Part shown: positions 10,574-64,000 of the stretch, piece by piece | Position numbering within the stretch: the stretch's first letter is position 1 | How the letters are laid out: each line of letters starts with the position of its first letter | From: an uncultured Candidatus Saccharibacteria bacterium | GTDB lineage: Bacteria; Patescibacteriota; Minisyncoccia; Phycocordibacterales; UBA9973 | Assembly: GCA_964527235.1 (NCBI GenBank) | Contig: CAZGNC010000003.1 | Span: forward strand, 47,809 to 111,808 | Direction of reading: 5' to 3' | Length of the DNA: 64,000 bases | The notes under the pieces: generated by a model | Seen by the model: only the letters and a program-made list of their open reading frames with translations | Told to the model about the DNA's origin: nothing | Database searches by the model: none | Translations under genes and position numbers: made by a program

Positions 10574-10610
10574 TAGAACATATTAGCATAAAATCGAATT
10601 TTCTCCGAAC

Positions 10611-10638
10611 ACAAAAAGAAAAACCCCCTTGCGGGGGC
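10611..10638 (-). terminator. rho-independent terminator (GGCCCCCGCAAGGGGG + T-run on minus strand) downstream of the micro-ORF and upstream of secA
   Basis: 5-bp G/C stem with TTGC loop followed by TTTTTCTTTTTGT on the minus strand. Confidence 0.6.
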
Positions 10639-10655
10639 CTTTCTGAAAGATAAGA

Positions 10656-10733
10656 CTAAGCTCGCTTCTTTTTTGAAGCCTTCTTTGTTGTCTTTTTCTT
10701 TGCTGCCTTCTTTGCTTTCTTTTTTGCTGCCAT
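10656..10733 (-). CDS. candidate 25-aa lysine-rich micro-protein (MAAKKKAKKAAKKKTTKKASKKKRA)
   Basis: ATG..TAG ORF below the 60-aa track cutoff, with its own downstream terminator. No SD, but no native gene here has one. Confidence 0.3.
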   Translation of the reverse strand: MAAKKKAKKAAKKKTTKKASKKKRA

Positions 10734-10768
10734 AATAGTTTTTAAGAACTTAATTTTTTAATTGTGAT

Positions 10769-10815
10769 TTGCAATAATCACGACCTTGAAAATATTTTTC
10801 AAAATAATTATTGCA
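10769..10815. promoter_or_regulatory. nested palindrome: TTGCAATAAT ... TTGAAAATATTTTTCAA ... ATTATTGCAA
   Basis: 10-bp outer inverted repeat enclosing a perfect 17-bp palindrome, in the AT-rich intergenic region between tRNA-Ala and the secA leader. Confidence 0.35.
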
Positions 10816-11095
10816 AGGAACAACTTAATTATCTCGCATATTAAAATTTATTACAATACTTTTTTCACAAAACTGTGGATAACTTTTTTATTTTCAAAAA
10901 TAAAAATATAAAATATTTTTTAAAAAAATTAATTATTTACTTAAAATAAAAAATTCTCGACCTTTCGATCAAGAATTCTTTATTATTATTTTCATTTGAG
11001 GCGAGTGATGGCGAAACTCCAACATATGTGCCTATGTGAGTGCGACCACTCGCCACAGATGAAAACAATATAACCATTATATCATACTATTCTCG

Positions 11096-11166
11096 TGGAC
11101 CCACGGGGAATCGGACCCCGGCCTCGTCCATGCCATGGACGCGTAATACCATTTTACTATGGGCCC
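11096..11166 (-). tRNA. tRNA-Ala (anticodon GGC)
   Basis: Manual fold: acceptor GGGCCCA/TGGGTCC with the G3:U70 alanine identity pair, U8 A9, D-loop with GG, anticodon loop AU-GGC-AU, discriminator A. No encoded CCA. The T-loop is an atypical UCCGAUU. Confidence 0.65.
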
Positions 11167-11567: not shown

Positions 11568-12458
11568 TTATATTCTCTCTAATATATGTTCTACCACATG
11601 ACTCATACGAGCACCGACGGATTCACAAGATTGATGAAAATGAGAGCCATTCTCTAAGTTAGGCAAGAAACTAACATCTGTAAGATATATACCGAATTTA
11701 GGATGCATCGTGAAATGCGTATTTAAATAAAACTTAGCATCTAAATGCCCAAATAAATCTTTAACTAAAGCATAAATCTTCTCTTTTTCGTGTCTAGCTA
11801 GACCAATAATCGGCATAATATATACATCCTCTCCCCGAAACCCAGCAATACTATGCACTTCAGTACTCTTACCTGGTACAAGTTCTTCTACTAGAACACT
11901 TCCCCCATAAGATGAGATATCATCAATAGCCCCAGCTAATTCGTTGAAAGTTTTCGCCACATATACGCCGACATTTGGATTCTCAGGGAAAGATCTAATA
12001 ATCCAAGGTGAACCGAACTTCTCGAAGGTTTCTTTCGCTTTCTTTATCGCATATCTCTCTCGCGGACCATCGAAGTCTTCTTGATATTGAGGGAAGATAA
12101 TATGTCGAGGTAAACTTACCCCCATCTTTTGCATGTGCTCTCGCAACATCTCTCTACTATTCACTAATAAACTAGAAAAGGGCGAGGAGTTAACATGCGG
12201 AATAGAAAAATTATGCAAAACTTGCGTAACTTCAGGTGGCAACGTGCTCCAAACCACATCTACCTTCTCAGCTAGATTTGGTAATGATATCGGCATTCCT
12301 CCCATATGCCACACACCCTCGCGATCTACAAATATATCAACGGGTTTATATTTATGAGAAAGTTGCTCTGATATGAGCGACAAAATATCACCACCTTTTT
12401 TCAAAGAAGATTCATAATGATTCCCTGTCCCGCCACGAAGCACACCGACTCGTTTCAT
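11568..12458 (-). CDS. ddl: D-alanine--D-alanine ligase-like ATP-grasp enzyme
   Basis: N-terminal VGVLRGGTGNHYESSLKKG resembles the Ddl N-domain; ATP-grasp region LVEELVPGKSTEVHSIAG. A TATAAT sits 9 nt upstream of the ATG, so possibly leaderless. Confidence 0.5.
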   Translation of the reverse strand: MKRVGVLRGGTGNHYESSLKKGGDILSLISEQLSHKYKPVDIFVDREGVWHMGGMPISLPNLAEKVDVVWSTLPPEVTQVLHNFSIPHVNSSPFSSLLVNSREMLREHMQKMGVSLPRHIIFPQYQEDFDGPRERYAIKKAKETFEKFGSPWIIRSFPENPNVGVYVAKTFNELAGAIDDISSYGGSVLVEELVPGKSTEVHSIAGFRGEDVYIMPIIGLARHEKEKIYALVKDLFGHLDAKFYLNTHFTMHPKFGIYLTDVSFLPNLENGSHFHQSCESVGARMSHVVEHILERI

Positions 12459-12473
12459 ATCTATAGATTATAA

Positions 12474-12498
12474 CAAAAAAAACCCCGCAAATGCGAGG
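12474..12498 (-). terminator. rho-independent terminator ending the 16S transcription unit (CCTCGCAtttGCGGGG + T8 on minus strand)
   Basis: Hairpin followed by eight T on the minus strand, between the 16S trailer and the ddl start. Confidence 0.6.
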
Positions 12499-12528
12499 TG
12501 TTTTTTGAAAGTCCGCTGTAAAAGCGGT

Positions 12529-12556
12529 TTGCTGTTCTATGTTTTGTTTCGTTCTA
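12529..12556 (-). repeat. 16S trailer half of pre-rRNA processing stem (pairs with leader at 14264-14291)
   Basis: TTGCTGTTCTATGTTTTGTTTCGTTCTA here is near-perfectly complementary to TAGAACGAAACAAAACACAAAACAGCAA at 14264-14291. Confidence 0.7.
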
Positions 12557-12685
12557 TTTTAACTCCAGACCTTTCTCTGGCGTCAGATTCTTTTTAGGAT
12601 ATGAAATCATTATCCATTGTGTCGTCAATTGAGCGACACAACACCGACTCACTAGACTACAATCTTCCGAAGAAGATCGTAGCGT

Positions 12686-14250
<1,565 letters not shown>

Positions 14251-51077: not shown

Positions 51078-52406
51078 TTACATTTTTAGCACCTCGCTTG
51101 CTGAGATACCTTTAGGATAAATGACTAAATCATCTTTATGCTTTTCGAAATAATTCTGCACCACATCTAGAATTCGCCAAGTCTCTATCACCTCCTCACT
51201 TGAAGTAAATAAATTGTGATCCCCTCTAATAGCGTTGAAAAGCACCTGCTCATACGCCTCAGGTAAATTCTCATAATATTCTTTAAAGTGGAAATGCAGT
51301 TTATGCTTGCTGACTTGGTGCTCGAGCCCAGGCTTCTTCGCCCACATGCTGAACTCTATCCCGGCATCAGGCTGGATACGAAGAAGTAGTTCGTTGGATT
51401 CGTTTTCTTGGTCTTTTTTATAACAAATCCTGATAGCAGTAAGTCGCTCGTCGAGAGCCTTACCTGTAGAGAGCGTTATCGGCACACCCACCCATCTCGG
51501 GTCACTAGAAGAAACTTTCAAAGAAATAAAAGTCTCTACCATGCTTCTCGGATTATCGACTTCTTCTCGGTAGCCTTCGTACTGCCCACGAGTGATGCAT
51601 TCTTTATTATTTAAATCACAAACTATCTGCATCTGACTCAATGCTCGAGCGCGAAGCTTGGGTACTTCATTTAAGTCCTCTGTGAGCTCCATCAGCGTCA
51701 GCGCTGCGAGCTGAAGCAGGTGGCTCTGCACCACGTCACGCAGAGCTCCTGTCTGCTCATAGAAATTCCCCCGACCTTCGACGCCGACTTTCTCGCTTGC
51801 GATGATTTCGATGCTTTCGATAAAATCTTTATTCCAAGTTTTCTTGAACAATGAATTACCAGCACGAAACACTATGATGTTCTGCGCTATCTCTTTAGCC
51901 ATGTAGTGATCTACTCGATACACCTGATCTCCCGAAAAGTACTGGTCTACATGTCTTGCGAGATCTACCGCACTTCCTAGATTCGTACCGAATGGTTTCT
52001 CGAGGAGAAGCTTGGTGTTGGGCACTTTCGATAGGTTTGATTTCCCGAGGAATCCTACTATTGATTTCGCCACCAAGGGTGGAGTAGAAAGATAGAACAC
52101 TCTATCTCCCGGTGCACCAAACTTGCCTTCTAACTCCTCTAGATACTTGCCGAGCTTTTCATATGCTTGGGAATCTTCTACGTCCATCGAATAGAGATGC
52201 ATCTTTTCTGTTAGATATTTCTTGTTGTTAGTTTTGCCGAGCAAGCTATCAATCTCAATGCCAGACTGACGAGTGATGCCAACTATTTCGAAATGCTCTG
52301 GCAACATGCCGGCCTGTGCTATCTCACCTATCGCAGGCAAAAGATAGCGCTTGCTTAGGTCGCCTGAGACTCCGAAGATTATAAGTATTGCTGGTTGTGT
52401 GTTCAT
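51078..52406 (-). CDS. zwf: glucose-6-phosphate 1-dehydrogenase
   Basis: IFGVSGDLSKRYLLPAI NADP-binding motif; DHYMAKE active-site motif. Confidence 0.9.
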   Translation of the reverse strand: MNTQPAILIIFGVSGDLSKRYLLPAIGEIAQAGMLPEHFEIVGITRQSGIEIDSLLGKTNNKKYLTEKMHLYSMDVEDSQAYEKLGKYLEELEGKFGAPGDRVFYLSTPPLVAKSIVGFLGKSNLSKVPNTKLLLEKPFGTNLGSAVDLARHVDQYFSGDQVYRVDHYMAKEIAQNIIVFRAGNSLFKKTWNKDFIESIEIIASEKVGVEGRGNFYEQTGALRDVVQSHLLQLAALTLMELTEDLNEVPKLRARALSQMQIVCDLNNKECITRGQYEGYREEVDNPRSMVETFISLKVSSSDPRWVGVPITLSTGKALDERLTAIRICYKKDQENESNELLLRIQPDAGIEFSMWAKKPGLEHQVSKHKLHFHFKEYYENLPEAYEQVLFNAIRGDHNLFTSSEEVIETWRILDVVQNYFEKHKDDLVIYPKGISASEVLKM

Positions 52407-52410
52407 GAAA

Positions 52411-53313
52411 TTATTTATTTATTTTATGTCCGCCAAATGCGTTACGCATCGCTGCAAGAAGCTTGGTCGCGAAATTCGTTTTACCTTTTTGTGATTCTAT
52501 ACGCACATCAAATGCCGACTGCATGGCTGGAGTTTCTATATTGAACTCTTTCGCAACTTCGAGCGCCCAGCGAGCCTCGCCCGACTCTGCGACGAAACCA
52601 TCGATACCTTCGAGTTCGGGATTGTCTTTCAATGCATCGCGAGTAAGCTCGTTGAGCCAAGAAGTCACCACGCTGTGATGTTGCCAGACATCGCCGGCTT
52701 TGTATAAATCTATATTCTTGTATGGACCTTCTTTGAGAAGTCTGTAACCTTCAGCCAGAGACTCCATCATGCCGTACTCGATGGCATTGTGTGTCATCTT
52801 TACGAAGTGGCCTGCGCCACTCTCCCCAAAGTGATGATATGCGCCTTCTGGGAGAGACAATGTTTGGAAAACTTTTTCTACTTTTTGGAAAGACGCTTGG
52901 TCCCCGCCTATCATCATCGCGAAACCATTCTGATATCCCCAGACACCGCCACTAGTACCGACGTCTAGATAATTCACTCCTTTAGCTTTTGCCTTTTTCT
53001 CTCGCTCTTGGGTCAAACGAAAATCAGAATTACCACCATCAATTATGATACCGCCTGGTGGCACCAAGCCAAGCCAGAGATCAAGCTCTGTATCCATACT
53101 CTCAGCAGGTAGCATGAGCCATAGAACAACGGGGTCGCCGTTGAATGCAGATATTACTTCTTCTTTAGTATAAGCGCCTTGTGCACCTAAAGCCGTAACC
53201 GCATCTGTCGTTTCTTTCGTGCGACTATGCGCGATAACTTCAAAGCCCCCTTCTTGAAGCTTCTGTGCTATCTGCTTGCCCATCTTACCTAACCCTACAA
53301 CTGCTATTTTCAT
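52411..53313 (-). CDS. gnd: 6-phosphogluconate dehydrogenase (decarboxylating), short YqeC/GntZ-like form
   Basis: MKIAVVGLGKMGKQIAQ Rossmann; 6PGDH C-terminal pattern. Confidence 0.8.
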   Translation of the reverse strand: MKIAVVGLGKMGKQIAQKLQEGGFEVIAHSRTKETTDAVTALGAQGAYTKEEVISAFNGDPVVLWLMLPAESMDTELDLWLGLVPPGGIIIDGGNSDFRLTQEREKKAKAKGVNYLDVGTSGGVWGYQNGFAMMIGGDQASFQKVEKVFQTLSLPEGAYHHFGESGAGHFVKMTHNAIEYGMMESLAEGYRLLKEGPYKNIDLYKAGDVWQHHSVVTSWLNELTRDALKDNPELEGIDGFVAESGEARWALEVAKEFNIETPAMQSAFDVRIESQKGKTNFATKLLAAMRNAFGGHKINK

Positions 53314-53315
53314 AA

Positions 53316-53978
53316 TTATTTATTGTGATCACTAAAAATTGTTAATACTGGGACCTTCTTCAACACTTGCGCGGGCTGTATGCTGATGCTCTCTTCATTT
53401 TGCAAGCTCTCTATCACAGGCCACTTATCTTCACCAAATGCGAACACAACTGCTTCATCTAACTTCTCTATAGCTTTCGGCGTCATGGTGATGCGTTCGA
53501 ACTTCTCGCTCTTGTAGTAACACGCGTAGTCAGTAGAATCTACCGCAATACTTCCCGGCAATATCCCCGCAGTATGACCATCAGTACCAACACCGAACAA
53601 CCCTAGCTTGTAAGAATCTTTCGCAAACTCTGTCTCAAGTATAGTATTAAATTTTTGCACTGTCATTGCCTCATTCTCACCGGCGAGCACGGGAACAAGA
53701 TTGGCCCCAGGAAGCGAAAAATCTTTCCCTACAAGCTGTTGCCAGTTTGAATCTGAGTGCCCAAATTCACCGTACCTTTCGTCAGTTAGGGTGACTGTTA
53801 AATTTTCTAGATCTTTCCCTTGTAGAAGCTCGGCTACTCGCACCCCAACTAAAATCGAAGAACCTCCAGCTAGGAAAAGAAGTACAGGCTTACCAGCACT
53901 CAGATTGCTAGTTATAGAATGAGCAACGAATGTCGCCGTGTCTTCAATGCTCGAGCCAGTACGTATATCTAAATTCAT
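53316..53978 (-). CDS. pgl: 6-phosphogluconolactonase
   Basis: NagB/Pgl fold; FLAGGSS motif; clustered with zwf and gnd. Confidence 0.75.
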   Translation of the reverse strand: MNLDIRTGSSIEDTATFVAHSITSNLSAGKPVLLFLAGGSSILVGVRVAELLQGKDLENLTVTLTDERYGEFGHSDSNWQQLVGKDFSLPGANLVPVLAGENEAMTVQKFNTILETEFAKDSYKLGLFGVGTDGHTAGILPGSIAVDSTDYACYYKSEKFERITMTPKAIEKLDEAVVFAFGEDKWPVIESLQNEESISIQPAQVLKKVPVLTIFSDHNK

Positions 53979-54018
53979 AAAGGAATTCTAACACGGAAAG
54001 TGTTTTTAAATATTGATA

Positions 54019-54046
54019 TTGAAATTTTAGAGAAAATATGTATAAT
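54019..54046 (+). promoter_or_regulatory. sigma70 promoter TTGAAA-16-TATAAT for cassette 8
   Basis: TTGAAA 54019-54024, TATAAT 54041-54046. Confidence 0.5.
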
Positions 54047-54092
54047 AATAATTAGCCACAGTTCCCCAACCCGCACATCGGAGGACGCGTTC

Positions 54093-54362
54093 ATGAAGGT
54101 CGCATTCCAAACAAACCGCGGAGTCAAGGCTGGAGATAGAGTCCAGGTCATTGACGCAGGAAAAGTCGTTGATACTGGAAGAGTCCTCGGTGTCGACCAA
54201 GCAAAACTCAGACTACAGAGCGACACAGGATCGACAACCGAGTTCGGCTGGTTCCAAACCCTCGGCAAGTGGAAGATGTTATTCGAGGACGAGGAGAAGG
54301 GTCAGTGGTTCGACCCCGATGCTTTCAACTACGACATCGTGCCTGAAACCACGGCCGTCTGA
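54093..54362 (+). CDS. GC-rich cassette 8: 89-aa small protein MKVAFQTNRGVKAGDRVQVIDAGKVVDTGRVLGVD...
   Basis: SD GGAGGA 8 nt upstream of ATG 54093; terminator 54384-54430. Confidence 0.45.
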   Translation: MKVAFQTNRGVKAGDRVQVIDAGKVVDTGRVLGVDQAKLRLQSDTGSTTEFGWFQTLGKWKMLFEDEEKGQWFDPDAFNYDIVPETTAV

Positions 54363-54383
54363 TCAAGACGTCGCATCGCCCCA

Positions 54384-54430
54384 GAGCCCCCGCCGGCACC
54401 AGCCAGCGGGGGCTCGAATTCTTTTATTTC
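54384..54430 (+). terminator. terminator GAGCCCCCGC...GCGGGGGCTC + T-run
   Basis: 10-bp GC stem followed by gaattcttttatttc. Confidence 0.7.
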
Positions 54431-54849
54431 AAATTTTTATTATATCTTTCGATACAATCATTCAGCATACCCAACTGCTCTTCACTCAGATCTCCTGTCG
54501 CGTGAGCTTCTACTATTTTATGAATAGTTAAATCTCTGTTGAAACTAACATCTAATTTAAATCCCTGCCCCGCTTGAACCAAAGAATCTGGGACATCACC
54601 AATATTACCCCATCCTATAATTTTCCCCGTGCTATCCATATAGCCCTTGGCTGTAGCACAAATATAAATACCTCCTGATTCGGTTTGGGCATGACCGGCA
54701 TTCCCGCCCATGGATTCTTTCAACAACAACTCTTGCATCTCCCCAGCCATCATTTGTAAATTATGAGCAACCAGAGCATCCTTGTTCCCTCTTTCTAAAC
54801 TTCTTGATCCTTCATGCATATGATCATTATAGCAAGAAATCAGAATCAT
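54424..54849 (-). CDS. hypothetical protein
   Basis: 141-aa ORF with native (low-GC) composition, lying between cassettes 8 and 5. Confidence 0.35.
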   Translation of the reverse strand: MILISCYNDHMHEGSRSLERGNKDALVAHNLQMMAGEMQELLLKESMGGNAGHAQTESGGIYICATAKGYMDSTGKIIGWGNIGDVPDSLVQAGQGFKLDVSFNRDLTIHKIVEAHATGDLSEEQLGMLNDCIERYNKNLK

Positions 54850-54905
54850 TTACTTAGCTATACAAAAGTGGTAATTTTATAAACGAACCCGTTCCCGGAG
54901 GAGTT

Positions 54906-55058
54906 ATGGCTGCGAAGAAGAAGACCGTGCCTTACTGGCGCCGTCTGCAACTGAGGCGTCAGGCGGAATTGACCAGAAAGAAGGCCAAGGCCAAGCCGAA
55001 GAAACGTAAACCACAGCGCCGACTCGTCGCCGTGATCTACGTGTACGAGTACCGCTGA
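54906..55058 (+). CDS. GC-rich cassette 5: 50-aa highly basic peptide MAAKKKTVPYWRRLQLRRQAELTRKKAKAKPKKRKPQRRLVAVIYVYEYR
   Basis: SD GGAGG 5 nt before ATG; terminator at 55083-55119; not in the ORF track (under 60 aa). Confidence 0.4.
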   Translation: MAAKKKTVPYWRRLQLRRQAELTRKKAKAKPKKRKPQRRLVAVIYVYEYR

Positions 55059-55082
55059 ACACCGCGGTATTCGATGAGGGAA

Positions 55083-55119
55083 GAGGGGGCGCTCCGCGTC
55101 CCCTCTCTTTGTTTGATTT
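55083..55119 (+). terminator. terminator GAGGGGG-cgctccgcgt-CCCCTC + CTTTGTTTGATTT
   Basis: GC hairpin plus T-rich tail. Confidence 0.6.
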
Positions 55120-55243
55120 AAAGAGAAATTTGTATTATTGTAATGAGACCATGGTTAACTAGTCTAATGGTGGGAATGAAAATTAATCTGCTTTAATTTT
55201 CATCCGGTTCTGTAAGAAATTGCTGTTATTTTGTAAGCAAAGC

Positions 55244-55314
55244 TGGGAGATCGTCTAATGGTAGGACATATCCCTCTGGAGGATATTATCTTGGTTCGAG
55301 TCCAAGTCTCCCAG
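55244..55314 (+). tRNA. tRNA-Gln (anticodon CUG)
   Basis: Manual fold: acceptor UGGGAGA/UCUCCCA with the U1:A72 typical of bacterial tRNA-Gln, U8, D-stem GUCU/GGAC, anticodon stem UAUCC/GGAUA with loop CU-CUG-GA, T-arm CUUGG-UUCGAGU-CCAAG, discriminator G. Confidence 0.75.
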
Positions 55315-55353
55315 CTTTGGCTATAAAATTAGCAATAGGAGAAGGAATCTGGA

Positions 55354-55376
55354 GGATGAACTCCAAGTCTCCCAGC
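55354..55376 (+). repeat. direct repeat of the tRNA-Gln 3' end (TCCAAGTCTCCCAGC) 40 nt downstream of the tRNA
   Basis: 15-nt exact match to 55300-55314, preceded by similar gagga context; att-like remnant. Confidence 0.6.
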
Positions 55377-55414
55377 AGTTTAGTAAAGTATTGAAGGACC
55401 TAGAGAGGTTATAT

Positions 55415-57232
55415 ATGAAATTTAAATCATTCAAAATTAAAAATTATAAATCAATAGTTGATACTGGAGAAGTTATTCTTTCAGGTCACGACAACATTAC
55501 TGTTTTTGCCGGCCAAAATGAATCCGGGAAAAGCTCTGTTTTAGAAGCTTTGAATTCATTTGAAACTGGTAAATTTGATGCAGATTCGAAGCCTTTTACT
55601 ACCAAAGGCACACTTGTTCAAAGTGTGAGTTGCACATTTGAAGTTGATGATAATAAATTATTACTTGAGCAACTGACTCAAGGAATGAGAGACGAGTATG
55701 AGCCTGAGATTGGTGAAGACGATCCTATCTTTGATGATAAAAAGATAAAAAATATAAAAGAGTTTACTCTAACTCGCACATATCCAAACTCCACGGGCAA
55801 ATCTCAACTCGATATAACGCCTGATGTTTTTGAAATTGTTAAGGCAGCTATTCTCGATCGAGAAGTTGAAGAAGAGGCAACAAGAGAAGACGGAACCATT
55901 GAAAAAAAGATTGCCAAAGAAAAGATTATAGATATTGGTGATGATAATTCCAACATGGCGTCTATTTTTTGGAATAATGTTGCCCCAAAGATAATACTTT
56001 TTAATGATTTTTGTGACTTGCTTCCTGATAGGATAACTCTTGCTGATCTTAAAGCAAAAAAGACTGATGTAAAAGGATATCAAGCAGTGAAGAATCTCGA
56101 AAAAATACTCAAACTTAATTTTGTTGATCTTTATGAAAAAGATGACCTAGAACGTGAGGCAATAAGAGATGAACATAATAATACGTTCTCAGTAGATTTC
56201 CAGCAAGCATGGGGACAAAAAATTCACAACGATAATAAAATCGAGGTTAAATATGATTTTGAAAAGAGAGATACCGATGATACCTCTTATGTTAACTTTT
56301 ATACCGAAACTAAAGATCGCCAGAAACTAAAACCTCATCAGAGAAGTAAGGGTTTAATCTGGTTTCTTTCATTTTGGATAGAGTTAAATGCTCAAAATTC
56401 AAGTGACCAACAGCTTGTTCTTTTAGCAGATGAACCCGGATTGTATTTACATGTAAAGGCACAAGCAGACATTCTAAAACTCTTTAAGAAATTGTCCGGA
56501 GAGGGGCATCAAATCTTATATACAACACATTCTCCTAATCTCATTGAGTCAGAAAAACTTAATCGAATTAAACTTGTACTTAATGACCCTAAGGAAGGAA
56601 CAATTCTTGAATCAGTTACAACTTCAAAAATTGATTCTCAGAATAAACAAGACGCTCTTCAACCGGTTGCAAATGCGATTGGATTTTCGATTAGCGATTT
56701 TGCTCTCTCAAGTCCTAAAAATGTAATACTTGAGGGCGTATCTGATTATTTTTACTACCTAGGAATGAGAAAAATACTTGGAAGAAAAGAAGGTTATTCC
56801 TTCGTTCCTGGTATTGGAGTAAGGAAGCAAAATACCCTTGTTTCGTTCTGTGTTGGATATGGGATCGACTGGGTAGCTGTATTTGATGATGATTCGACAA
56901 GAGGACAGGATTCTCAAAAAACCTTCACTGATATAAAGGAAAATTTATTTAATGGTGATGATGTTACGGCCAAACTAAAAATGTATACAACGACGGGTAT
57001 CTCAAGTGTTGAGAATATGTTTACTGTTAATGACATGAAATTAGTTGACGATAAGCTTGCAGTAAAAGCGGATTCCGCAAAATCAGTTGGCGATAAACGA
57101 AAAGTTGTATTCGCTAAATCTTTCTATGAAAAAGTTGAGGGCAACCAAATTACTAAGAAGAAATTAGATGCGGCGACCGTGGCTAATTTTAATAAAGTAT
57201 TTGACTGGATTGAAACAAGTTTAAATTTATAA
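55415..57232 (+). CDS. OLD-family ATP-dependent endonuclease (N-terminal ABC/AAA_15-like ATPase + C-terminal Toprim), stand-alone
   Basis: N-terminal FKSFKIKNYKSI, Walker A GQNESGKSS, Walker B LLADEPGLYLH, Toprim VILEGVSDYFYY...GIDWVAVFDDD. Start could be 55391 or 55415. Confidence 0.75.
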   Translation: MKFKSFKIKNYKSIVDTGEVILSGHDNITVFAGQNESGKSSVLEALNSFETGKFDADSKPFTTKGTLVQSVSCTFEVDDNKLLLEQLTQGMRDEYEPEIGEDDPIFDDKKIKNIKEFTLTRTYPNSTGKSQLDITPDVFEIVKAAILDREVEEEATREDGTIEKKIAKEKIIDIGDDNSNMASIFWNNVAPKIILFNDFCDLLPDRITLADLKAKKTDVKGYQAVKNLEKILKLNFVDLYEKDDLEREAIRDEHNNTFSVDFQQAWGQKIHNDNKIEVKYDFEKRDTDDTSYVNFYTETKDRQKLKPHQRSKGLIWFLSFWIELNAQNSSDQQLVLLADEPGLYLHVKAQADILKLFKKLSGEGHQILYTTHSPNLIESEKLNRIKLVLNDPKEGTILESVTTSKIDSQNKQDALQPVANAIGFSISDFALSSPKNVILEGVSDYFYYLGMRKILGRKEGYSFVPGIGVRKQNTLVSFCVGYGIDWVAVFDDDSTRGQDSQKTFTDIKENLFNGDDVTAKLKMYTTTGISSVENMFTVNDMKLVDDKLAVKADSAKSVGDKRKVVFAKSFYEKVEGNQITKKKLDAATVANFNKVFDWIETSLNL

Positions 57233-57419
57233 TTAATTTTCAGATAGAGACTACTTTTTCTTCTATATATCCTTCCTTGCAATTGATATCTCTTGCTCTA
57301 GTACATCCATAAACAAATATATTTGTACGGATCCATCTTTAAGATTTTTATATTTTTCTTCGGCCGTGACTCCTGATCCCCCTTTTCACCTCCCCAAACT
57401 ATTATGATACTATTAAACC

Positions 57420-57896
57420 ATGACCCACAAAAATACAATTTGTCTCTGGTTTGATAAGGACGCCGAAAGTGCAGCGAACTTTTATGCTGCGACTTTTCCT
57501 GATAGTAAAGTAAATAATGTTTTTCGTGCACCTAGTGATTTCCCAGGTGGCAAGAAGGGCGATGCGCTCACGGTATTATTCACAGTCTGTGGTATTCCCT
57601 GCATGGGGCTTAACGGTGGGCCTACATTTAAGCAAAGTGAAGCATTTTCTTTTCAGATAGAAACAGAAGACCAAGAAGAAACAGACCGCTACTGGAACGC
57701 AATAGTTGGCAACGGTGGCCAAGAAAGCGAGTGTGGCTGGTGCAAGGACAAGTGGGGCCTCTCATGGCAGATCACTCCTCGTGCACTAACTGAGGCCCTA
57801 GCCGCTGGCGGAGAAGAATCTAAGCGCGCATTTGACGCAATGATGACGATGAAGAAGATAGACGTCGCTGCTATAGAAGCCGCCCGCCGAGGATAA
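57420..57896 (+). CDS. PhnB-like / VOC-superfamily protein (COG2764-type)
   Basis: ICLWFDKDAESAANFYAATFPDS N-terminal signature; GC-elevated. Confidence 0.6.
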   Translation: MTHKNTICLWFDKDAESAANFYAATFPDSKVNNVFRAPSDFPGGKKGDALTVLFTVCGIPCMGLNGGPTFKQSEAFSFQIETEDQEETDRYWNAIVGNGGQESECGWCKDKWGLSWQITPRALTEALAAGGEESKRAFDAMMTMKKIDVAAIEAARRG

Positions 57897-57912
57897 TTTG
57901 TAATACTTTTCG

Positions 57913-57941
57913 TTGACATTTCGTGTAAAAAATGTTATTAA
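57913..57941 (+). promoter_or_regulatory. sigma70 promoter TTGACA-17-TATTAA for cassette 9
   Basis: TTGACA 57913-57918, TATTAA 57936-57941. Confidence 0.45.
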
Positions 57942-57975
57942 AATAAACAGAATCTAACCCTTGCCGGAGGTTCCC

Positions 57976-58548
57976 GTGCGTGACTCTTTAGCAGTACTCG
58001 CAGGTGTCCTCGGAGTTATGGGGTTCGTTGTTTACATAGCGTCTATGTTTCGGCGCGTGAACCCCACTCGCCCATCGAGGTCGAGCTGGACAACCTGGGC
58101 CATCTTGAACTTAGAGATCCTGGCGGGTATGCTCAAGTCAGGAACAGCGACTTTACAGATGGCAGGAATAACTCTAGGGTCTCTGTTCGCTGCGGTATTT
58201 TCTTTGCTCTACGGCAAGAAATCCGCATGGAGCCCTCTTGAGAAATTCGTCATGCTAGGCTGCGTCCTGGGGCTGTGCTTCATGATTTACAACCCGACAT
58301 GGGGCATCGCCGTTAGTGTACTCGTCGGTCCAGTCTGCGGTTGTGTGCCAGGGCTTGTAGAGGCCTGGAAAAATCCGAACAAGGAGAACAAGCTCTCTTG
58401 GGCAACTTGGGCAACATCATCGCTAATCAGCGTGATACTGTTGCCCAGTTGGAGCATCGAGAATGCAGCACAACCGGTCAGCTTCTTGGCTAACCAAGTG
58501 GCAATGCTGGTCGTGATATTTACCAGCCCGCACCGGAGACAGCAGTAA
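57976..58548 (+). CDS. GC-rich cassette 9: about 190-aa polytopic membrane protein, unknown function
   Basis: GTG start with SD GGAGG (57966-57970) 5 nt upstream. Five or six hydrophobic helices. Followed by a strong terminator. Confidence 0.5.
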   Translation: MRDSLAVLAGVLGVMGFVVYIASMFRRVNPTRPSRSSWTTWAILNLEILAGMLKSGTATLQMAGITLGSLFAAVFSLLYGKKSAWSPLEKFVMLGCVLGLCFMIYNPTWGIAVSVLVGPVCGCVPGLVEAWKNPNKENKLSWATWATSSLISVILLPSWSIENAAQPVSFLANQVAMLVVIFTSPHRRQQ

Positions 58549-58570
58549 CCACATAGCCTGACAAACCACA

Positions 58571-58625
58571 TCGCCTGACAAAAGGGATCGCCAGATGCCT
58601 ACTTGTGTCAGGCGATTTCTTTTTG
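58571..58625 (+). terminator. terminator ATCGCCTGACA...TGTCAGGCGAT + TTCTTTTTG
   Basis: 11-bp stem, T-run. Confidence 0.65.
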
Positions 58626-58702
58626 ACTTCTTTATAATCCAAGCTTTATGCTACTTTTTCTAAAAGTGATATTATTACAAATAAGTAAAAGATGATATTT
58701 AA

Positions 58703-59062
58703 ATGAAATCCTACGAGAACATAAATGAATACATGAAGGATGTGCCGAAAGATTTCCTTCCCAAGCTAAAGGAAATCCGATCTTTAGCAAACAAGCTCAT
58801 ACCTAGGGGCGTAGAGTCTATAAAATACGGCATGCCGACGGTAGAGCTCAACGGTAAGAATTTTATTCACTATGCTTCGATGAAGGGGCACCTGGGTTTC
58901 TACCCAGCACCCTCGGGAGTGAAGGCATATGAGAGTGAGCTACAAAAGAAAGAAATAAGTTTCTCGAAAGGTTGCATCAGGTTCCCATATGACAAACCTC
59001 TGCCTATCCCTCTAATTACAAAAATAATAAAATTCAGACTCAAAGAAGAGTCTGGGAAATAG
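58703..59062 (+). CDS. DUF1801 (YdhG-like) domain protein
   Basis: 119-aa ORF read as the YdhG/DUF1801 family from overall pattern; ...IKYGMPT... is the only conserved-looking stretch picked out. Confidence 0.5.
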   Translation: MKSYENINEYMKDVPKDFLPKLKEIRSLANKLIPRGVESIKYGMPTVELNGKNFIHYASMKGHLGFYPAPSGVKAYESELQKKEISFSKGCIRFPYDKPLPIPLITKIIKFRLKEESGK

Positions 59063-59132
59063 AATAATTATATGGGAAAAATGAGAGAATTAAAAATACC
59101 TCTATAATCAATTATTCTGTTATAATTACCCT

Positions 59133-59522
59133 ATGAACAAAGTCACACATTTTGAATTCCCTTGGGACGACAAAGAGCGAGCGAAAGCTTTTTACCAAAA
59201 CGTTTTTGATTGGAAGCCTTTCGAATGGGAGCAGTTTGGCTATACTAGCTGGCAGACTGGTCCAGTAAATGAAAAGATGCAACCAACTGAGCCAGGTTTC
59301 ATAAATGGTGGCTCTAGTAAGCGCGACCCAAGCATGCCACATCCGATGTTCTATATAGATGTCGATGATATTGATTTAGCGTTAAGTAAAATCAAAGAAA
59401 GCGGTGGCGCAGTTGTAAAAGACAAAACTCCATTGGGAGAAAACGGCTCAATGGGTTTCTTGGCTTGGTTCAAAGATTCTGAGGGTAACATTCTTGGACT
59501 TTCTCAGTATAAAAAATCTTAG
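59133..59522 (+). CDS. glyoxalase/bleomycin-resistance (VOC) family protein
   Basis: 129-aa ORF MNKVTHFEFPWDDKERAKAFYQNVFDWKP... read as a VOC/glyoxalase fold (two beta-alpha-beta-beta-beta modules); no defining motif identified. Confidence 0.55.
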   Translation: MNKVTHFEFPWDDKERAKAFYQNVFDWKPFEWEQFGYTSWQTGPVNEKMQPTEPGFINGGSSKRDPSMPHPMFYIDVDDIDLALSKIKESGGAVVKDKTPLGENGSMGFLAWFKDSEGNILGLSQYKKS

Positions 59523-59538
59523 TAATTAAATTAATCCT

Positions 59539-59835
59539 ATGAAAAAACCATTCTTACATGCACTAGGCGCAGTTTTATACATAGTGGTAATAGTATTCTT
59601 TATCCACACGGCTACGACCAACCTAAGCGACAAGCCAGACACGATATTTGCCCCGATGGCTATGCTTAGTCTGTTCGTGTTATCCGCAGCAGTTATGGGG
59701 TTCCTGTTCCTATCCCAGCCACTCCAGCTCCTCGTCGCTAACCAGAAGAAAGAAGCCCTCACCTTCTTTGGGCAGACTGTAGGGTTCTTCGCAGGCTTTG
59801 TATTACTTTTTGTAATTTTACTCTTCTTATATTAA
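59539..59835 (+). CDS. small membrane protein (3 TM)
   Basis: Three hydrophobic helices in a 98-aa ORF. Confidence 0.4.
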   Translation: MKKPFLHALGAVLYIVVIVFFIHTATTNLSDKPDTIFAPMAMLSLFVLSAAVMGFLFLSQPLQLLVANQKKEALTFFGQTVGFFAGFVLLFVILLFLY

Positions 59836-59847
59836 AATACTGAATAT

Positions 59848-60609
59848 ATGAAAAACAATATAATAATAATTTTAGCGTTGCTTGTTTTATTAGGTGGTTT
59901 TCTTTATTTTACTAAAAACCAAAAAGAGCCTGCTAGTACCACAGCAGTATATTCGAGCCAAGAACTAGGCTTTGAGTTCACTCACAACACAGGACCTAAC
60001 GGCTACGTAGTCTCAGATGCTACCCCTGCCAACAAAGAGGGAGATCTATTGAGTACAGTTGTCCTAATGCAAACAAAAGACAAAGAAAATCTAGACAAGA
60101 ACGGCGCTCCAGTCGGCGGTGAAGGACCTGCGACAATCGCAGTAAATGTTTTCAAAAATACCAAGAACCGACAGCCTAGCGTCTGGGCTATGGAGAATCC
60201 TACTCTTAGTAACTACAACCTCAAACTCACTGAACCCGCAGAAACAGTAGTAGGTGGTGCTAACGCCGTAAGCTACAAGGCAGACGGTCTGTATGCTTCG
60301 AACAACGTCGTGGTAGCACACGGAGGCTACATATACGTCTTTACAGGCATGTACCTAGATGAGAATTCTAATCTCAGCCGAGACTTCCTACCGCTTATAA
60401 ATTCAGTGAAATTTATCCCGACATCATCAGGCGCAGTAAGTGGGAAAATAAATATCGATGAAGTTTGCCAGAACGCTCTAATATATATGTCATTCCCTGA
60501 CAGTAAAGCTGCAGATAAATTCGTCCAGGATTGTAAAGATGGCAAACACCCAGAAGTAATCGAGAAATTCAAAAAAGATATGGGTCTCGGAGATGGCGCA
60601 GCTATCTAA
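59848..60609 (+). CDS. secreted hypothetical protein
   Basis: Signal/TM anchor IIIILALLVLLGGFLYF. Confidence 0.4.
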   Translation: MKNNIIIILALLVLLGGFLYFTKNQKEPASTTAVYSSQELGFEFTHNTGPNGYVVSDATPANKEGDLLSTVVLMQTKDKENLDKNGAPVGGEGPATIAVNVFKNTKNRQPSVWAMENPTLSNYNLKLTEPAETVVGGANAVSYKADGLYASNNVVVAHGGYIYVFTGMYLDENSNLSRDFLPLINSVKFIPTSSGAVSGKINIDEVCQNALIYMSFPDSKAADKFVQDCKDGKHPEVIEKFKKDMGLGDGAAI

Positions 60610-60617
60610 CTGCATCA

Positions 60618-61052
60618 ATGCAAAAAGAAACACACATCAAATGCCGAGGCGTGATAACCCATGAAGGGAAATTGTTGTTGGTTAAGCATCCTCAAGATAC
60701 CAGCTTCGCCACCCTCCCTGGTGGGCATTTAGAGTGGGGTGAAGATTTACGAACTTGTCTAGAAAGAGAATTAGTAGAAGAGCTCGGCATAAAACCCCAG
60801 ATAGGCAGACTGCTGTACATACACAGCTTTGTAGATAAAACTGGCACCAATCATTTCCTAGAATTTTTCTTTGAAGTATTAAACGGCGAAGAATATGCGA
60901 ACTCTAACAATGCCCAAACTTCACATGCACACGAACTCGCAGAAAAGCTCTGGGTGTCGCCCGAAGATGACATCCGAATACTACCAGGAAAATTTGCAAA
61001 CGATTTCAAAGAAGGTGTAATGATTGCAGATACGGTTAGATACATTAGCTAG
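60618..61052 (+). CDS. NUDIX hydrolase
   Basis: Nudix box GGHLEWGEDLRTCLERELVEELGI. Confidence 0.85.
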   Translation: MQKETHIKCRGVITHEGKLLLVKHPQDTSFATLPGGHLEWGEDLRTCLERELVEELGIKPQIGRLLYIHSFVDKTGTNHFLEFFFEVLNGEEYANSNNAQTSHAHELAEKLWVSPEDDIRILPGKFANDFKEGVMIADTVRYIS

Positions 61053-61080
61053 AAAAAATAAATCTAGTATAATAATTTAT

Positions 61081-61818
61081 ATGCGAAAATTTTTAATTCC
61101 GTTTTTTGTTGTTGTATTCATCATTCTTTCTGCCACATTTTGGCTCAATCAAAAAGACCCCACCCCGAAAGTCACCGACCCATCAGCAGTAGCCTGTACT
61201 GAAGAGGCCCTGATGTGCCCTGACGGCTCGTACGTGGCCAGAGAGGGGCTAGACTGCTCTTTCAGAATGTGCCTAGGCGCAGGGCCATTTACAGGCAAGC
61301 TAATTCAGCAAGGCAATGGCTTCTTCCTGGTTATCGGCGCACCAGAAGACACAACCGAAGAAGTCAGCTATTCCCTACCCCTAACTATCAAAGTCTCAAA
61401 CCCTCTAGGTACTCTCGTAGGCAAATATGTATCAGTGCAAGGTAGCTTCATCTCAGGCAACACTTTCGAAGTCACTTCACTAGAAGAAATTCTTGGTAGC
61501 GACAACGGCGGTGAAATTGTAAAAATAAAAATGGGAGAATCTGGTTTCGCTAACGGCGTACGCATCACACTCCGCAAGGTAGATTCAGATAGTAGGTGTC
61601 CTAAAGATGTGAAATGCATAACTGCAGGGCTCGCATCTTTCGAAGTGGTACTCAAGAGCGACACCGATCAAGAAACAGTCACTCTCGCAAGCGACAAACC
61701 CGAGCACCCATTTGATGCATTCAAGGTCTCTATAGTAGACGTCACACCCGCACCCGTATCTACAAAAAAAATCCTCGAGTCTGAATACGAGGTAACTTTC
61801 AAAGTAGAGAATCTCTAA
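61081..61818 (+). CDS. membrane-anchored hypothetical protein
   Basis: Start MRKFLIPFFVVVFIILSATFWL is a TM anchor; the 61024 start overlaps the Nudix gene. Confidence 0.4.
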   Translation: MRKFLIPFFVVVFIILSATFWLNQKDPTPKVTDPSAVACTEEALMCPDGSYVAREGLDCSFRMCLGAGPFTGKLIQQGNGFFLVIGAPEDTTEEVSYSLPLTIKVSNPLGTLVGKYVSVQGSFISGNTFEVTSLEEILGSDNGGEIVKIKMGESGFANGVRITLRKVDSDSRCPKDVKCITAGLASFEVVLKSDTDQETVTLASDKPEHPFDAFKVSIVDVTPAPVSTKKILESEYEVTFKVENL

Positions 61819-61857
61819 AAGTTTCATAAAATATAAAATAGTTATACTATATATAGT

Positions 61858-62976
61858 ATGCGTAAATTCAGTAGAATTCTGTATATTCATGTTATAAAAC
61901 CCATACTTTTTTTATTCCCTGCCGATGATGTGCATGAGATGTTCCTGCGTTTTGGCGGCAAACTGGGTAAACACAAATGGGTCAGAAAATCCCTCCGGAC
62001 TATTTGGAGCTACGAAGATAAAATCCTAGAACAAAATATCCTGGGTATGAATTTCAAAAATCCCATAGGCCTCTCTGCCGGCTTTGACTACAATGCCGAC
62101 TTACCAGAAATACTGCCAAGCATAGGCTTCGGATTCCACACCATCGGCACACTCACCCATGATGCATACGGAGGCAACACTCCACCGATGCTCGCCAGAC
62201 TACCGAAATCAAATTCACTTCTAGTTAACAAAGGTTTCAAGAATAAAGGAGCCGAAGAAGTCCTCTCTCACCTAAAACCGCATACCCATGAGGCAGTCCG
62301 CGGGGTCAGCATCGGCGCTACCAATAAACCCTACCCAGACTTTCATGCCATGATTGCGAACCTAGTAGAGGGCTTTCGCGATGCAGAAAAATTTCACAAC
62401 TTTGATTTCTATGAGCTCAATATCAGTTGCCCCAATTTACAGAACCTACAAAACCTCAAAGAACAGATAGCTTCACCCACAGGACTAAGACAAGCTTTAG
62501 TGCTACTTGCGAAGCTCAATCTAGAACGACCTGTATTTATGAAAATGCCTCTAGAGAGAACTACGGACGAGATGAAAGAATTAATAGAAGTTGCAAGCGA
62601 CTTCCCTTTTATTAAAGGATTGATTTTCTCGAACTTAGCAAAAGATCGCAACAACCCGTCTTTCGACAAAGAAGAAGTGGCTAAAGCTGGCAAGGGTAAC
62701 TTCAGTGGTAAACCCGTAGAAGAAAAATCAAATGAGATTCTGCATTATGCATATCAAAAATACAAAAACAGATTTGTCTTGGTTGGAGTCGGTGGAGTGT
62801 TCACCGCAGAAGACGCTTATAAGAAAATCCAACTCGGCGCATCGTTGATCCAGTTAATAACTGGAATGGTATTCAACGGTCCTTCTCAAATCGGCATCAT
62901 CAACAAAGAATTAGCCGAGCTCCTACGCAAAGATAAATTTACAAACATACAAGACGCAGTAGGTTCGAAGGCTTAA
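61858..62976 (+). CDS. pyrD: dihydroorotate dehydrogenase (quinone), class 2
   Basis: NPIGLSAGFDYNAD, NISCPN and GVGGV motifs; N-terminal membrane-association segment. Confidence 0.8.
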   Translation: MRKFSRILYIHVIKPILFLFPADDVHEMFLRFGGKLGKHKWVRKSLRTIWSYEDKILEQNILGMNFKNPIGLSAGFDYNADLPEILPSIGFGFHTIGTLTHDAYGGNTPPMLARLPKSNSLLVNKGFKNKGAEEVLSHLKPHTHEAVRGVSIGATNKPYPDFHAMIANLVEGFRDAEKFHNFDFYELNISCPNLQNLQNLKEQIASPTGLRQALVLLAKLNLERPVFMKMPLERTTDEMKELIEVASDFPFIKGLIFSNLAKDRNNPSFDKEEVAKAGKGNFSGKPVEEKSNEILHYAYQKYKNRFVLVGVGGVFTAEDAYKKIQLGASLIQLITGMVFNGPSQIGIINKELAELLRKDKFTNIQDAVGSKA

Positions 62977-63009
62977 GCTTTACCAAACATCTGGTATAAT
63001 ACAAACACT

Positions 63010-63564
63010 ATGACAAAAATAATATCTTGGTTAGCTATCGCTGGATTAGTAGTAGTTGGAGGATATTTAGTAATGGAACCTAAGGCAACTGAAGAAAAAA
63101 CTCAAAACGAGTTGCAAGAAGTAGTGGTAGAAGACACCACAAAAGAAGAAGCGCCAACTACCGGTAAGAAAATGGCTTTCTCTCAATTTATCAAACAAGG
63201 TGGCGCATATAAATGCACCGTGAACCAAACCCTAAGTGGCATAGATACCACTGGAGTAACTTATATCAACGACTCTATGATTCGCGGAGAATTCAATACT
63301 AGAATCCAGAATATGAATATTGACTCAACTTTCATCGTGCGCGATGGATACACTTATAGCTGGAGTTCAGTCATGCCTACAGCAGGATTCAAAGTTAAGA
63401 TGACAGGCACAGCCACAACACCTGACACAACCACAGGCACAACTGGTTCTTATAGCTGGAATGCAGAACAAATCGGCGACTATGATTGCCAACCTTGGAC
63501 AGTTGACCAAGCTAAATTCACAGTACCTACTACTGTAACGTTCAAAGAAGTAAGTTCTAACTAA
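63010..63564 (+). CDS. secreted hypothetical protein
   Basis: Signal anchor ISWLAIAGLVVVGGYLV; Thr-rich. Confidence 0.4.
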   Translation: MTKIISWLAIAGLVVVGGYLVMEPKATEEKTQNELQEVVVEDTTKEEAPTTGKKMAFSQFIKQGGAYKCTVNQTLSGIDTTGVTYINDSMIRGEFNTRIQNMNIDSTFIVRDGYTYSWSSVMPTAGFKVKMTGTATTPDTTTGTTGSYSWNAEQIGDYDCQPWTVDQAKFTVPTTVTFKEVSSN

Positions 63565-63999
63565 CTATTTCTTTCTATTTTCTACCGCAGCTTTAATAAA
63601 AGCAGAGAAAAGCGGATGAGGAGAAAGTGGGTGTGCTAAAAATTCAGGATGAAACTGAGTACCCAGGAAAAACGGGTGCTCGCTCTTTGGTAGTTCAGCA
63701 ATCTCCATCAAAACATCGTCAGGAGACCTGCCAGAGAATACTAGCCCAGCATCTTCTAATTGTTTTATGTAATCAGGGTTAACTTCGTATCGATGTCGGT
63801 GACGCTCTAGGATTTCTTTGGCTCCGTAAGCTTCACTGGCGATACTTCCCTTCATAAGCACTGCGATGTACTCACCTAATCGCATACTACCTCCATAATC
63901 TTTATTCTTTATCTTGTCTACCTGGTCTGCCATTGTAATAATTACAGGATATTTAGAATCTGGATTTATTTCTTTTGTATTTGCTTCTTTAAGTCCCAA
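63565..63999 (-). CDS. pyrG: CTP synthase, C-terminal glutamine amidotransferase fragment (gene continues past the window end)
   Basis: GTQFHPEF and C-terminal tail typical of PyrG; the ORF runs to the window edge. Confidence 0.7.
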   Translation of the reverse strand: MGLKEANTKEINPDSKYPVIITMADQVDKIKNKDYGGSMRLGEYIAVLMKGSIASEAYGAKEILERHRHRYEVNPDYIKQLEDAGLVFSGRSPDDVLMEIAELPKSEHPFFLGTQFHPEFLAHPLSPHPLFSAFIKAAVENRKK

Positions 64000-64000
64000 C

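Follow-up and report, generated by a model that had tools for sequence, protein, structure and literature searches.

In a 64-kb stretch of DNA from a Patescibacteria-like bacterium (the window, in whose numbering coordinates are given), a gene for an OLD-family protein lies downstream of a tRNA-Gln(CUG) gene. The segment from 55316 to ~57419 is likely to be an eroded defence island that was mobilised by a large serine recombinase (LSR) and placed after this tRNA gene, with a class-1-like OLD effector as its cargo. The guanine-plus-cytosine (GC) content of the region ~55200-57400 is 0.33-0.37 compared to 0.43-0.50 on both flanks, and this 2.1-kb low-GC segment contains the tRNA-Gln gene, a 15-nt repeat copy of the tRNA 3′ end and the OLD gene. 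Contigs from three sequencing runs carried the OLD gene, either whole or cut at a contig end, and the sequence of the tRNA and its repeat was identical in contigs assembled independently from three runs, which argues against an assembly artefact. The loci and contigs used for comparison are designated by L numbers.

The OLD gene encodes a protein of 605 aa (606 codons with the stop) and is preceded by a ribosome-binding site, GAGAGG. The preliminary description of this DNA, made from the sequence alone, had counted 606 aa; the Walker A, Walker B and Toprim motifs that it had read in the protein are indeed there. The ATPase motifs comprise Walker A (GQNESGKS, aa 33-40), a signature-like RSKG (aa 310-313), Walker B (LLADEP with D339/E340; DEP at 339-341) and an H-loop, THSP (aa 371-374), and the Toprim motif residues are E440-x3-D444, D491-D-D493, E533 and K563. 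In an alignment of 32 homologues (~600 aa each, 44-83% identical to the window protein) all of these residues were invariant except for D492, which was at least 90% conserved. The protein matched the Pfam families AAA_15 (2e-22) and AAA_21 (7e-19). PADLOC, which had been proposed as a check of the classification, returned Old as the best model (2e-27), followed by AriA, NsnB, AbiLi and GajA; the AriA match (3e-21) covered only the ATPase part and the GajA models scored 5e-12. When the alignment profile was compared with the PDB, the best solved relative was 6p74, the class 1 OLD protein of Thermus scotoductus (4e-10, Walker B through the Toprim DxD). The profile paired LEGvSD and viDDD of the family with VEGYGD and VHDED of 6p74, and GajA was absent from the matches of this search at E ≤ 1. 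Foldseek with an AlphaFold2 (AF2) model of the protein (pLDDT 83.5) placed 6p74 at the top (1e-16), then GajA chains (3e-15 to 6e-15) and the OLD protein of retron Eco8. By its predicted architecture and nearest structure the protein is an OLD-family ATPase-Toprim of the class-1-like type.

Compared with relatives that are 83-91% identical, the OLD gene had a non-synonymous divergence (pN) of 0.05-0.10 and a saturated synonymous divergence (pS) of 0.70-0.80, indicating strong purifying selection and no decay. Free of internal stop codons and with the conserved residues kept, the gene looks intact and is predicted to be functional. The family comprises 474 representatives (50% clustering, E ≤ 1e-30) and is patchily distributed among phyla (Patescibacteria, Bacteroidota, Chloroflexota, Thermodesulfobacteriota and others). 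A phage or plasmid origin was considered and rejected, the identity reaching at most 34% on viral contigs and at most 33% on plasmids.

According to the preliminary description no integrase remained at this site, and its argument from att sites implied one of the tyrosine type. Neither quite holds. In a tblastn search, the LSR of L013 matched two segments on the minus strand of the window in different frames, 57379-57311 (23 aa, 74%) and 57311-57255 (19 aa, 79%). They form a stump of 125 nt, or 42 aa, and the remainder of the LSR on both sides of it is gone. At the DNA level the stump is 77% identical to L013 810-898 (blastn), and it matches best the LSRs of L013 (76%) and L218/L219 (67%), the very islands whose OLD genes come closest to that of the window. 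Judged from these matches, the recombinase of the islet, of which this trace is left, was of the serine type. The stump and the OLD gene converge, with 22 nt between the stump and the OLD stop codon. The same layout is found intact in L223, where an OLD gene (74% identical) ends at 9821 and a 436-aa LSR is encoded on the minus strand at 9822-11132, and in L020, where the two genes overlap tail to tail. Beside the pair in L223, at 11712-14038, we also observed a Transposase_mut gene, an RVT_1 reverse-transcriptase gene and then a type III-like methylase and Res pair, which together look like a compact mobile and defence cluster.

Most of the closest OLD relatives (79-91% identical) were found inside type I restriction-modification (R-M) operons on recombinase-bearing islands, and two such islands lie directly after tRNA-Gln(CUG). 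In one of them (L013), tRNA-Gln(CTG) is followed by an LSR gene on the minus strand, an HsdM/S fusion, OLD (87%), HsdR and YgjP, and the island ends near a tRNA-Gln-like remnant ~11 kb further on. In the other (L221), the order is tRNA-Gln(CTG), LSR on the minus strand, HsdM, DUF2130, HsdS, OLD (83%) and HsdR; the genome is related to that of the window, with which it has the gene order DsbB, thioredoxin-like and DAGK in common. L218/L219 carry LSR (minus strand), HsdM, HsdS, OLD, HsdR and YgjP, and L007 carries HsdM, OLD, HsdS and HsdR, with L010 and L224/L225 being similar. The OLD gene was also found after genes for a HigB-like toxin and an HTH/M78 peptidase (L008) and ~3 kb beyond two tRNA-Ser genes and a minus-strand LSR (L009). 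Among the 70 upstream neighbours of homologues the commonest families were HsdS (11), N6_Mtase (6) and Eco57I (4), and among the 63 downstream neighbours HsdR-type proteins (9-12); UvrD/GajB-type helicases were not among the commonest families of the downstream set, and neither reverse transcriptase nor AriB recurred in the two sets. Solo copies are common in the family as well, as they make up most of the 76 loci: L223 (74%) lies beside a recombinase only, and L022 (47%) directly after tRNA-Gln. The window gene resembles its 83-89% identical relatives from the ATG to the stop codon and no further on either side, which indicates that the OLD gene moves as a cassette.

By ancestry, then, as far as these comparisons reach, the window gene belongs to a clade that is usually wired into type I R-M operons. 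Because the gene of the closest relatives mostly sits in such operons, the window copy probably lost its R-M neighbours or descends from the simpler OLD-recombinase module seen in L223 and L020. The preliminary description had left the choice between a class 1 OLD and a degraded system; the latter is nearer, but the partners that were lost would be type I R-M genes and/or the recombinase and not GajB. We propose that an island lodged immediately downstream of tRNA-Gln(CUG) by means of an LSR, and that its survivors would be the left junction (a truncated copy of the tRNA 3′ half and the conserved left end), one cargo gene and the recombinase stump. The cargo is predicted to consist of an ABC-type ATPase gating a Toprim two-metal nuclease and would most likely serve as a single-gene (class-1-like) effector against phages or mobile elements. 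Upon infection, the ATPase module would turn the nuclease on, which might nick or cut the replicating DNA of the invader or, in the manner of P2 Old, sever tRNA anticodon stems; phage growth would stop in both cases.

Several points weigh against this interpretation. There are six R-M-embedded locus types among the relatives that are at least 73% identical (L007, L010, L013, L218-L220, L221/L222 and L224/L225), and the R-M partners that the protein possibly needs are absent from the 64-kb window. A single deletion does not lead from L013 or L221 (tRNA, recombinase, R-M genes with OLD) to the order in the window (tRNA, OLD, stump), and this origin was rejected; the layout of L223 and L020 therefore fits better. 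Pfam OLD-like_TOPRIM reached only E 0.088, which is under its cut-off, and the Toprim assignment therefore rests on the profile alignment to 6p74, the invariant acidic residues and the fold. A promoter scan gave 8 sigma-70-like sites where 8.1 were expected, and none of them was upstream of the OLD gene on the plus strand. Finally, the function of the clade is a predicted one, in activity, trigger and phage-resistance phenotype alike.

The first of these points leads to the strongest alternative, namely that OLD is an orphaned type I R-M accessory, active only as a guardian coupled to HsdM/S/R (as PrrC is to EcoprrI), and that the window copy is an inactive leftover that has not yet decayed. 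In six of the nearest locus types OLD is placed between hsdM/hsdS and hsdR with 4-nt gaps to its neighbours or with overlapping stop and start codons, the counts of HsdS, N6_Mtase and HsdR-type neighbours point in the same direction, and hsd genes are absent from the window. Nevertheless, we regard this alternative as unlikely: solo copies such as those in L223 and L022 are common, the window gene is full length with intact catalytic residues and a low pN at saturated pS, and it has its own ribosome-binding site. Moreover, an hsd operon could sit elsewhere in the genome, beyond the 64 kb.

The left side of the islet is formed by the tRNA gene and its repeat. TCCAAGTCTCCCAGC occurs exactly at the tRNA 3′ end (55301-55315) and again at 55362-55376. 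No other 15-mer of the window comes back within 100 nt, and only 1 of 300 composition-preserving shuffles gave any pair of this kind. The preliminary description had correctly recognised the tRNA gene (both ARAGORN and Rfam call it) and the exact copy of its 3′ end; however, the tRNA ends at 55315 and not at 55314, and the gap to the exact copy is 46 nt instead of 40 nt. The copy is also longer than had been thought. TCTGGAGGAT, at its start, is identical to tRNA positions 55275-55284, so that the downstream element duplicates the entire 3′ half of the tRNA, beginning in the anticodon loop and running to the 3′ end, except that GAAC stands in place of the 16 nt ATTATCTTGGTTCGAG (a net loss of 12 nt). 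In L152, whose tRNA is identical to that of the window, the tRNA is followed by a homologous 32-nt spacer and an undeleted 41-nt 3′ half, and L157 is arranged likewise, its half being near-intact. Beyond the second copy, the window, L152 and L157 are wholly divergent. The duplicated half is therefore older than the islet, and the variable DNA starts right after it. The repeat is a genuine integration-type scar at tRNA-Gln, as had been proposed, but it marks the left junction and does not bracket the OLD gene.

For the same reasons it is quite improbable that a tRNA-targeting integrase brought the OLD gene and left the two 15-nt copies as its attL/attR scar. The repeat is real and non-random, it consists of tRNA 3′-end sequence, the classical target of integrases, and in L118 a 22-nt direct repeat brackets a 3-kb insert at the equivalent tRNA. 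However, the OLD gene lies downstream of both copies, which are close to each other, and the downstream search for a third copy that the preliminary description had recommended found none in the window at ≤3 mismatches. In addition, L152 and L157 share the structure with different DNA after it, the islet begins only after the second copy, and the sole recombinase trace belongs to a serine recombinase.

Upstream of tRNA-Gln, at 55148-55215, we observed tRNA-like debris that neither ARAGORN nor Rfam called; tRNA-Gln was the only tRNA or known RNA that they returned around the gene (54900-55500 for Rfam). A D-arm-like piece of the debris, TAGTCTAATGGTGGGA, matches the tRNA at 13 of 14 positions; after it come, in this order, a perfect 11-bp hairpin (55176-55203), whose loop contains CTG, and CCGGTTC. 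D-arm-like pieces are also present upstream of tRNA-Gln in L013 and L221. Compared with shuffled sequences, neither the spacer with the half-copy (z -1.1) nor the upstream debris (z -0.9) folded better. A perfect 11-nt inverted repeat (TGAAAATTAAT at 55177-55187 and ATTAATTTTCA at 57232-57242) surrounds the segment with the tRNA and the OLD gene; it is AT-rich and probably a product of chance.

The tRNA-Gln(CUG) locus is a real insertion hotspot, which bears out the preliminary description. A metagenome scan with the tRNA 3′ end yielded 120 loci, 50 of which extended for 2.5 kb or more past the tRNA. In 18 of the 120 loci the 3′ end recurred within 400 nt downstream, and in 9 an LSR lay within 3 kb downstream. 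The tRNA of the window recurs identically in L128, L152 and L161, each time with different downstream DNA. L087 has a near-identical tRNA and the upstream genes 6PGL and G6PD in common with the window, and a gene for an MFS transporter follows downstream instead of the islet. No exact empty site of the same species was found, as all contigs with the exact flanking proteins also have the islet; L087, L161 and L152 are the closest substitutes. L098/L148 were rejected as an empty site, because they share with the window the PhnB-like gene alone. This gene (PF06983, 57420-57896) is 86% identical in aa and 80% in nt to a gene ~1 kb after tRNA-Gln(TTG) in L098 and L148, with the nucleotide homology beginning at 57429, and it may itself be tRNA-Gln-linked cargo. 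The GC content around it is uneven, falling from 0.53 to 0.37 over 57400-59400.

The left end of the islet (the second copy and the 38 nt up to the OLD ATG) is homologous to the left end of the L008 island (3931-3995), where a tRNA 3′ remnant and the same left-end sequence precede the HigB-like, M78 and OLD genes. L128 shares this left end, and has the tRNA identical to that of the window, a remnant and the same HigB-like/M78 pair. Related left-end sequence was found after intact tRNA in L013 (372-396) and L163, and in L118 after the 22-nt direct repeat, 3 kb from the tRNA. The comparison with L163 suggests that the sequence after the second copy is the native flank of the tRNA, and the comparison with L128, which has a foreign-type remnant, suggests that it was borne by the island.

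Other loci of the hotspot contain further elements. Pseudogenes that resemble tRNA-Gln and are interrupted in the T arm or T loop are present in L013 (11453-11615) and, just after their tRNA-Gln, in L122 and L150; their inserts range from 15 to ~105 nt, and in L150 the insert lies between GGTTC and GAGTCC. These splits suggest the T-arm region as the crossover site of some element at the hotspot. A conserved GC-rich hairpin element, GGGGTCGGGGAA ... TTCCCCGTG, adjoins tRNA-Gln or its remnants on unrelated contigs (L013 11516, L108 1376 and L137 9752, the last on the minus strand); an Rfam scan of L013 gave no match to this element or to the distal tRNA-like remnant. L013 also has a conserved imperfect palindrome, CTATTCCGTCATTGCATACCTGCTGAGAGCAGTATCCAGAA, at 424-466, in the interval that separates tRNA-Gln from the LSR 3′ end; in L124, L099 and L109 matching or partial copies come after tRNA-Gln. 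This palindrome could be an att site of the recombinase or a terminator. Candidate crossover sites for the recombinase of L013- and L221-type islands are the T loop of the tRNA and the palindrome GCATACCTGCTGAGAGCAGTATCC.

The adjacency of tRNA-Gln and OLD could also be functional, for instance if the nuclease targets a tRNA and the neighbouring tRNA gene or half-copy serves as decoy, spare or regulator. Anticodon stems of tRNA are cut by P2 Old (PMC12445682) and tRNA-Lys by PARIS AriB (PMC10802454, PMC12707154), and tRNA-Gln was found within 6 kb upstream of an OLD homologue in 5 of the 54 loci scanned, in L022 only 213 nt upstream. We consider this explanation very improbable, as most loci have no tRNA nearby, a recombinase or other cargo usually intervenes where there is one (L013, L017, L221), the same tRNA hosts unrelated cargo, and the spacer and half-copy did not fold better than shuffles. 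The notion that the protein is a housekeeping repair ATPase of the SMC/RecF/SbcC type, which by the preliminary description would have counted against its reading, is effectively refuted: the matches to SMC_N, RecF and Rad50 are weak, confined to the first ~50-80 residues around the N-terminal P-loop and far under the family cut-offs (RecF 20.3 versus 172 bits, Rad50 18 versus 700), and the C-terminal Toprim, patchy distribution, foreign GC content and mobile gene context speak against it.

Table 1. Features of the islet and its borders in window coordinates
Feature	Position	Strand	Evidence and remarks
tRNA-Gln (anticodon CUG), intact	55244-55315	+	ARAGORN; Rfam RF00005, 60.8 bits, E 1e-12; left anchor of the variable region
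32-nt spacer between tRNA and 3′-half copy	55316-55347	+	Aligned with spacers of L152 and L157 that are homologous and equally long
Truncated copy of the tRNA-Gln 3′ half	55348-55376	+	TCTGGAGGAT (55348-55357), GAAC, exact 15-mer TCCAAGTCTCCCAGC (55362-55376); marks the left junction of the islet
Conserved left-end sequence AGTTTAGTAAAGTATTGAAGGACCTAGAGAGGTTATAT	55377-55414	+	Holds the ribosome-binding site of OLD; related sequence in L008, L128, L013, L118 and L163
OLD-family nuclease gene (predicted), 605 aa	55415-57232	+	ATG at 55415, stop at 57232; ATPase with inserted domain ~aa 1-405, Toprim ~aa 433-565, C-terminal helices
LSR pseudogene fragment, one frameshift	57255-57379	-	Zinc-ribbon region, aa 303-344 of the L013 enzyme
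Right boundary zone	57380-57419		GC climbs from 0.34-0.37 to 0.46-0.49; just before the PhnB-like gene

Taken by itself, the window locus is an ordinary, well-supported defence islet; the main lead is the R-M-embedded setting of the clade, which concerns the relatives more than the locus itself. Provided that the solo gene is active, the candidate phyla radiation, in which defence systems are sparse, would gain a class-1-like OLD nuclease. A conserved OLD clade that repeatedly occurs within type I R-M operons on serine-recombinase islands provides a testable link between the restriction enzyme and OLD, and its natural variants (R-M-embedded, with HigB and M78 peptidase, with a recombinase only, solo) are suited to the question of partner dependence. 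The tRNA-Gln locus also offers candidate att sites for a family of serine recombinases of Patescibacteria. By analogy with known guardians, we tentatively raise the possibility that the clade represents a fifth genomic setting for OLD, in which a full-length ATPase-Toprim between hsdM/hsdS and hsdR might act as guard of the restriction enzyme. Like PrrC and PARIS, it would respond to anti-restriction proteins or to stalled restriction, and its cuts in DNA or tRNA would kill or arrest the cell. In Patescibacteria such operons would travel on LSR islands, several of them at tRNA-Gln, and the window copy would have outlived its R-M system.

Finally, we compared the islet with known systems. The classes of OLD have been defined previously (PMC10568477, PMC12392090), and class 1 consists of single genes away from other defence genes. 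One member, Vc OLD of Vibrio cholerae, has an OLD-type Toprim acting as a DNA nickase (PMC12392090), and another, P2 Old, is a tRNA anticodon-stem nuclease (PMC12445682). As in class 1 (P2 Old, TsOLD 6P74, Vc OLD), the OLD gene has no partner gene in the window, its neighbours being the tRNA, the recombinase stump and the PhnB-like gene, and 6P74 is the best solved match in both sequence and fold. On the other hand, the window protein is only ~14% identical to TsOLD and ~80 aa longer, its host is of the Patescibacteria type, and most of the nearest clade members are inside type I R-M operons or beside other R-M genes. It shares its overall fold with Gabija GajA (class 2), as judged by the Foldseek matches, but unlike in Gabija no open reading frame for a GajB/UvrD-type helicase is present within 52000-64000, which confirms for the window what the preliminary description had noted. 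With regard to class 3 and retrons, there was no reverse transcriptase among the called neighbours, and the tRNA was the sole Rfam match in the span scanned.

The islet resembles tRNA-linked genomic islands in that a low-GC insert lies directly 3′ of a tRNA and is variably present among genomes with the same tRNA. Islands moved by serine recombinases and bearing short target repeats are exemplified by the SCCmec/CcrAB type. With these the islet shares the short repeats of the target 3′ end, tandem or nested remnants and the trace of a large serine recombinase. It differs from them in that the repeats do not bracket the surviving cargo (no tRNA 3′-end repeats flank the insert, both copies being on the tRNA side) and in that the recombinase is reduced to a frameshifted stump of 42 codons, whereas intact LSRs are present in L013, L221, L223 and L020.

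The last comparison concerns the guardians of R-M systems, PrrC/EcoprrI, PARIS (AriA/AriB) and Ronin. The guardian concept has been set out previously (PMC12707154; preprint 10.1101/2023.04.06.535777). Guardians such as PrrC are located inside type I operons (PMC12707154), and in PARIS a tRNA nuclease is released on sensing an anti-restriction protein (PMC10802454). The window protein differs from PARIS (class 4) in being a single fused polypeptide of ATPase and Toprim, while most PARIS systems have separate AriA and AriB (DUF4435 Toprim), and no AriB partner was found in the window; it differs from PrrC in having no anticodon-nuclease domain and, in the window copy, no R-M neighbours. What it has in common with PARIS is the pairing of an ABC ATPase and a Toprim nuclease, and the AriA model matches its ATPase part. 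And like PrrC in EcoprrI, the OLD protein of its close relatives holds the prrC position, beside hsdS and hsdR.

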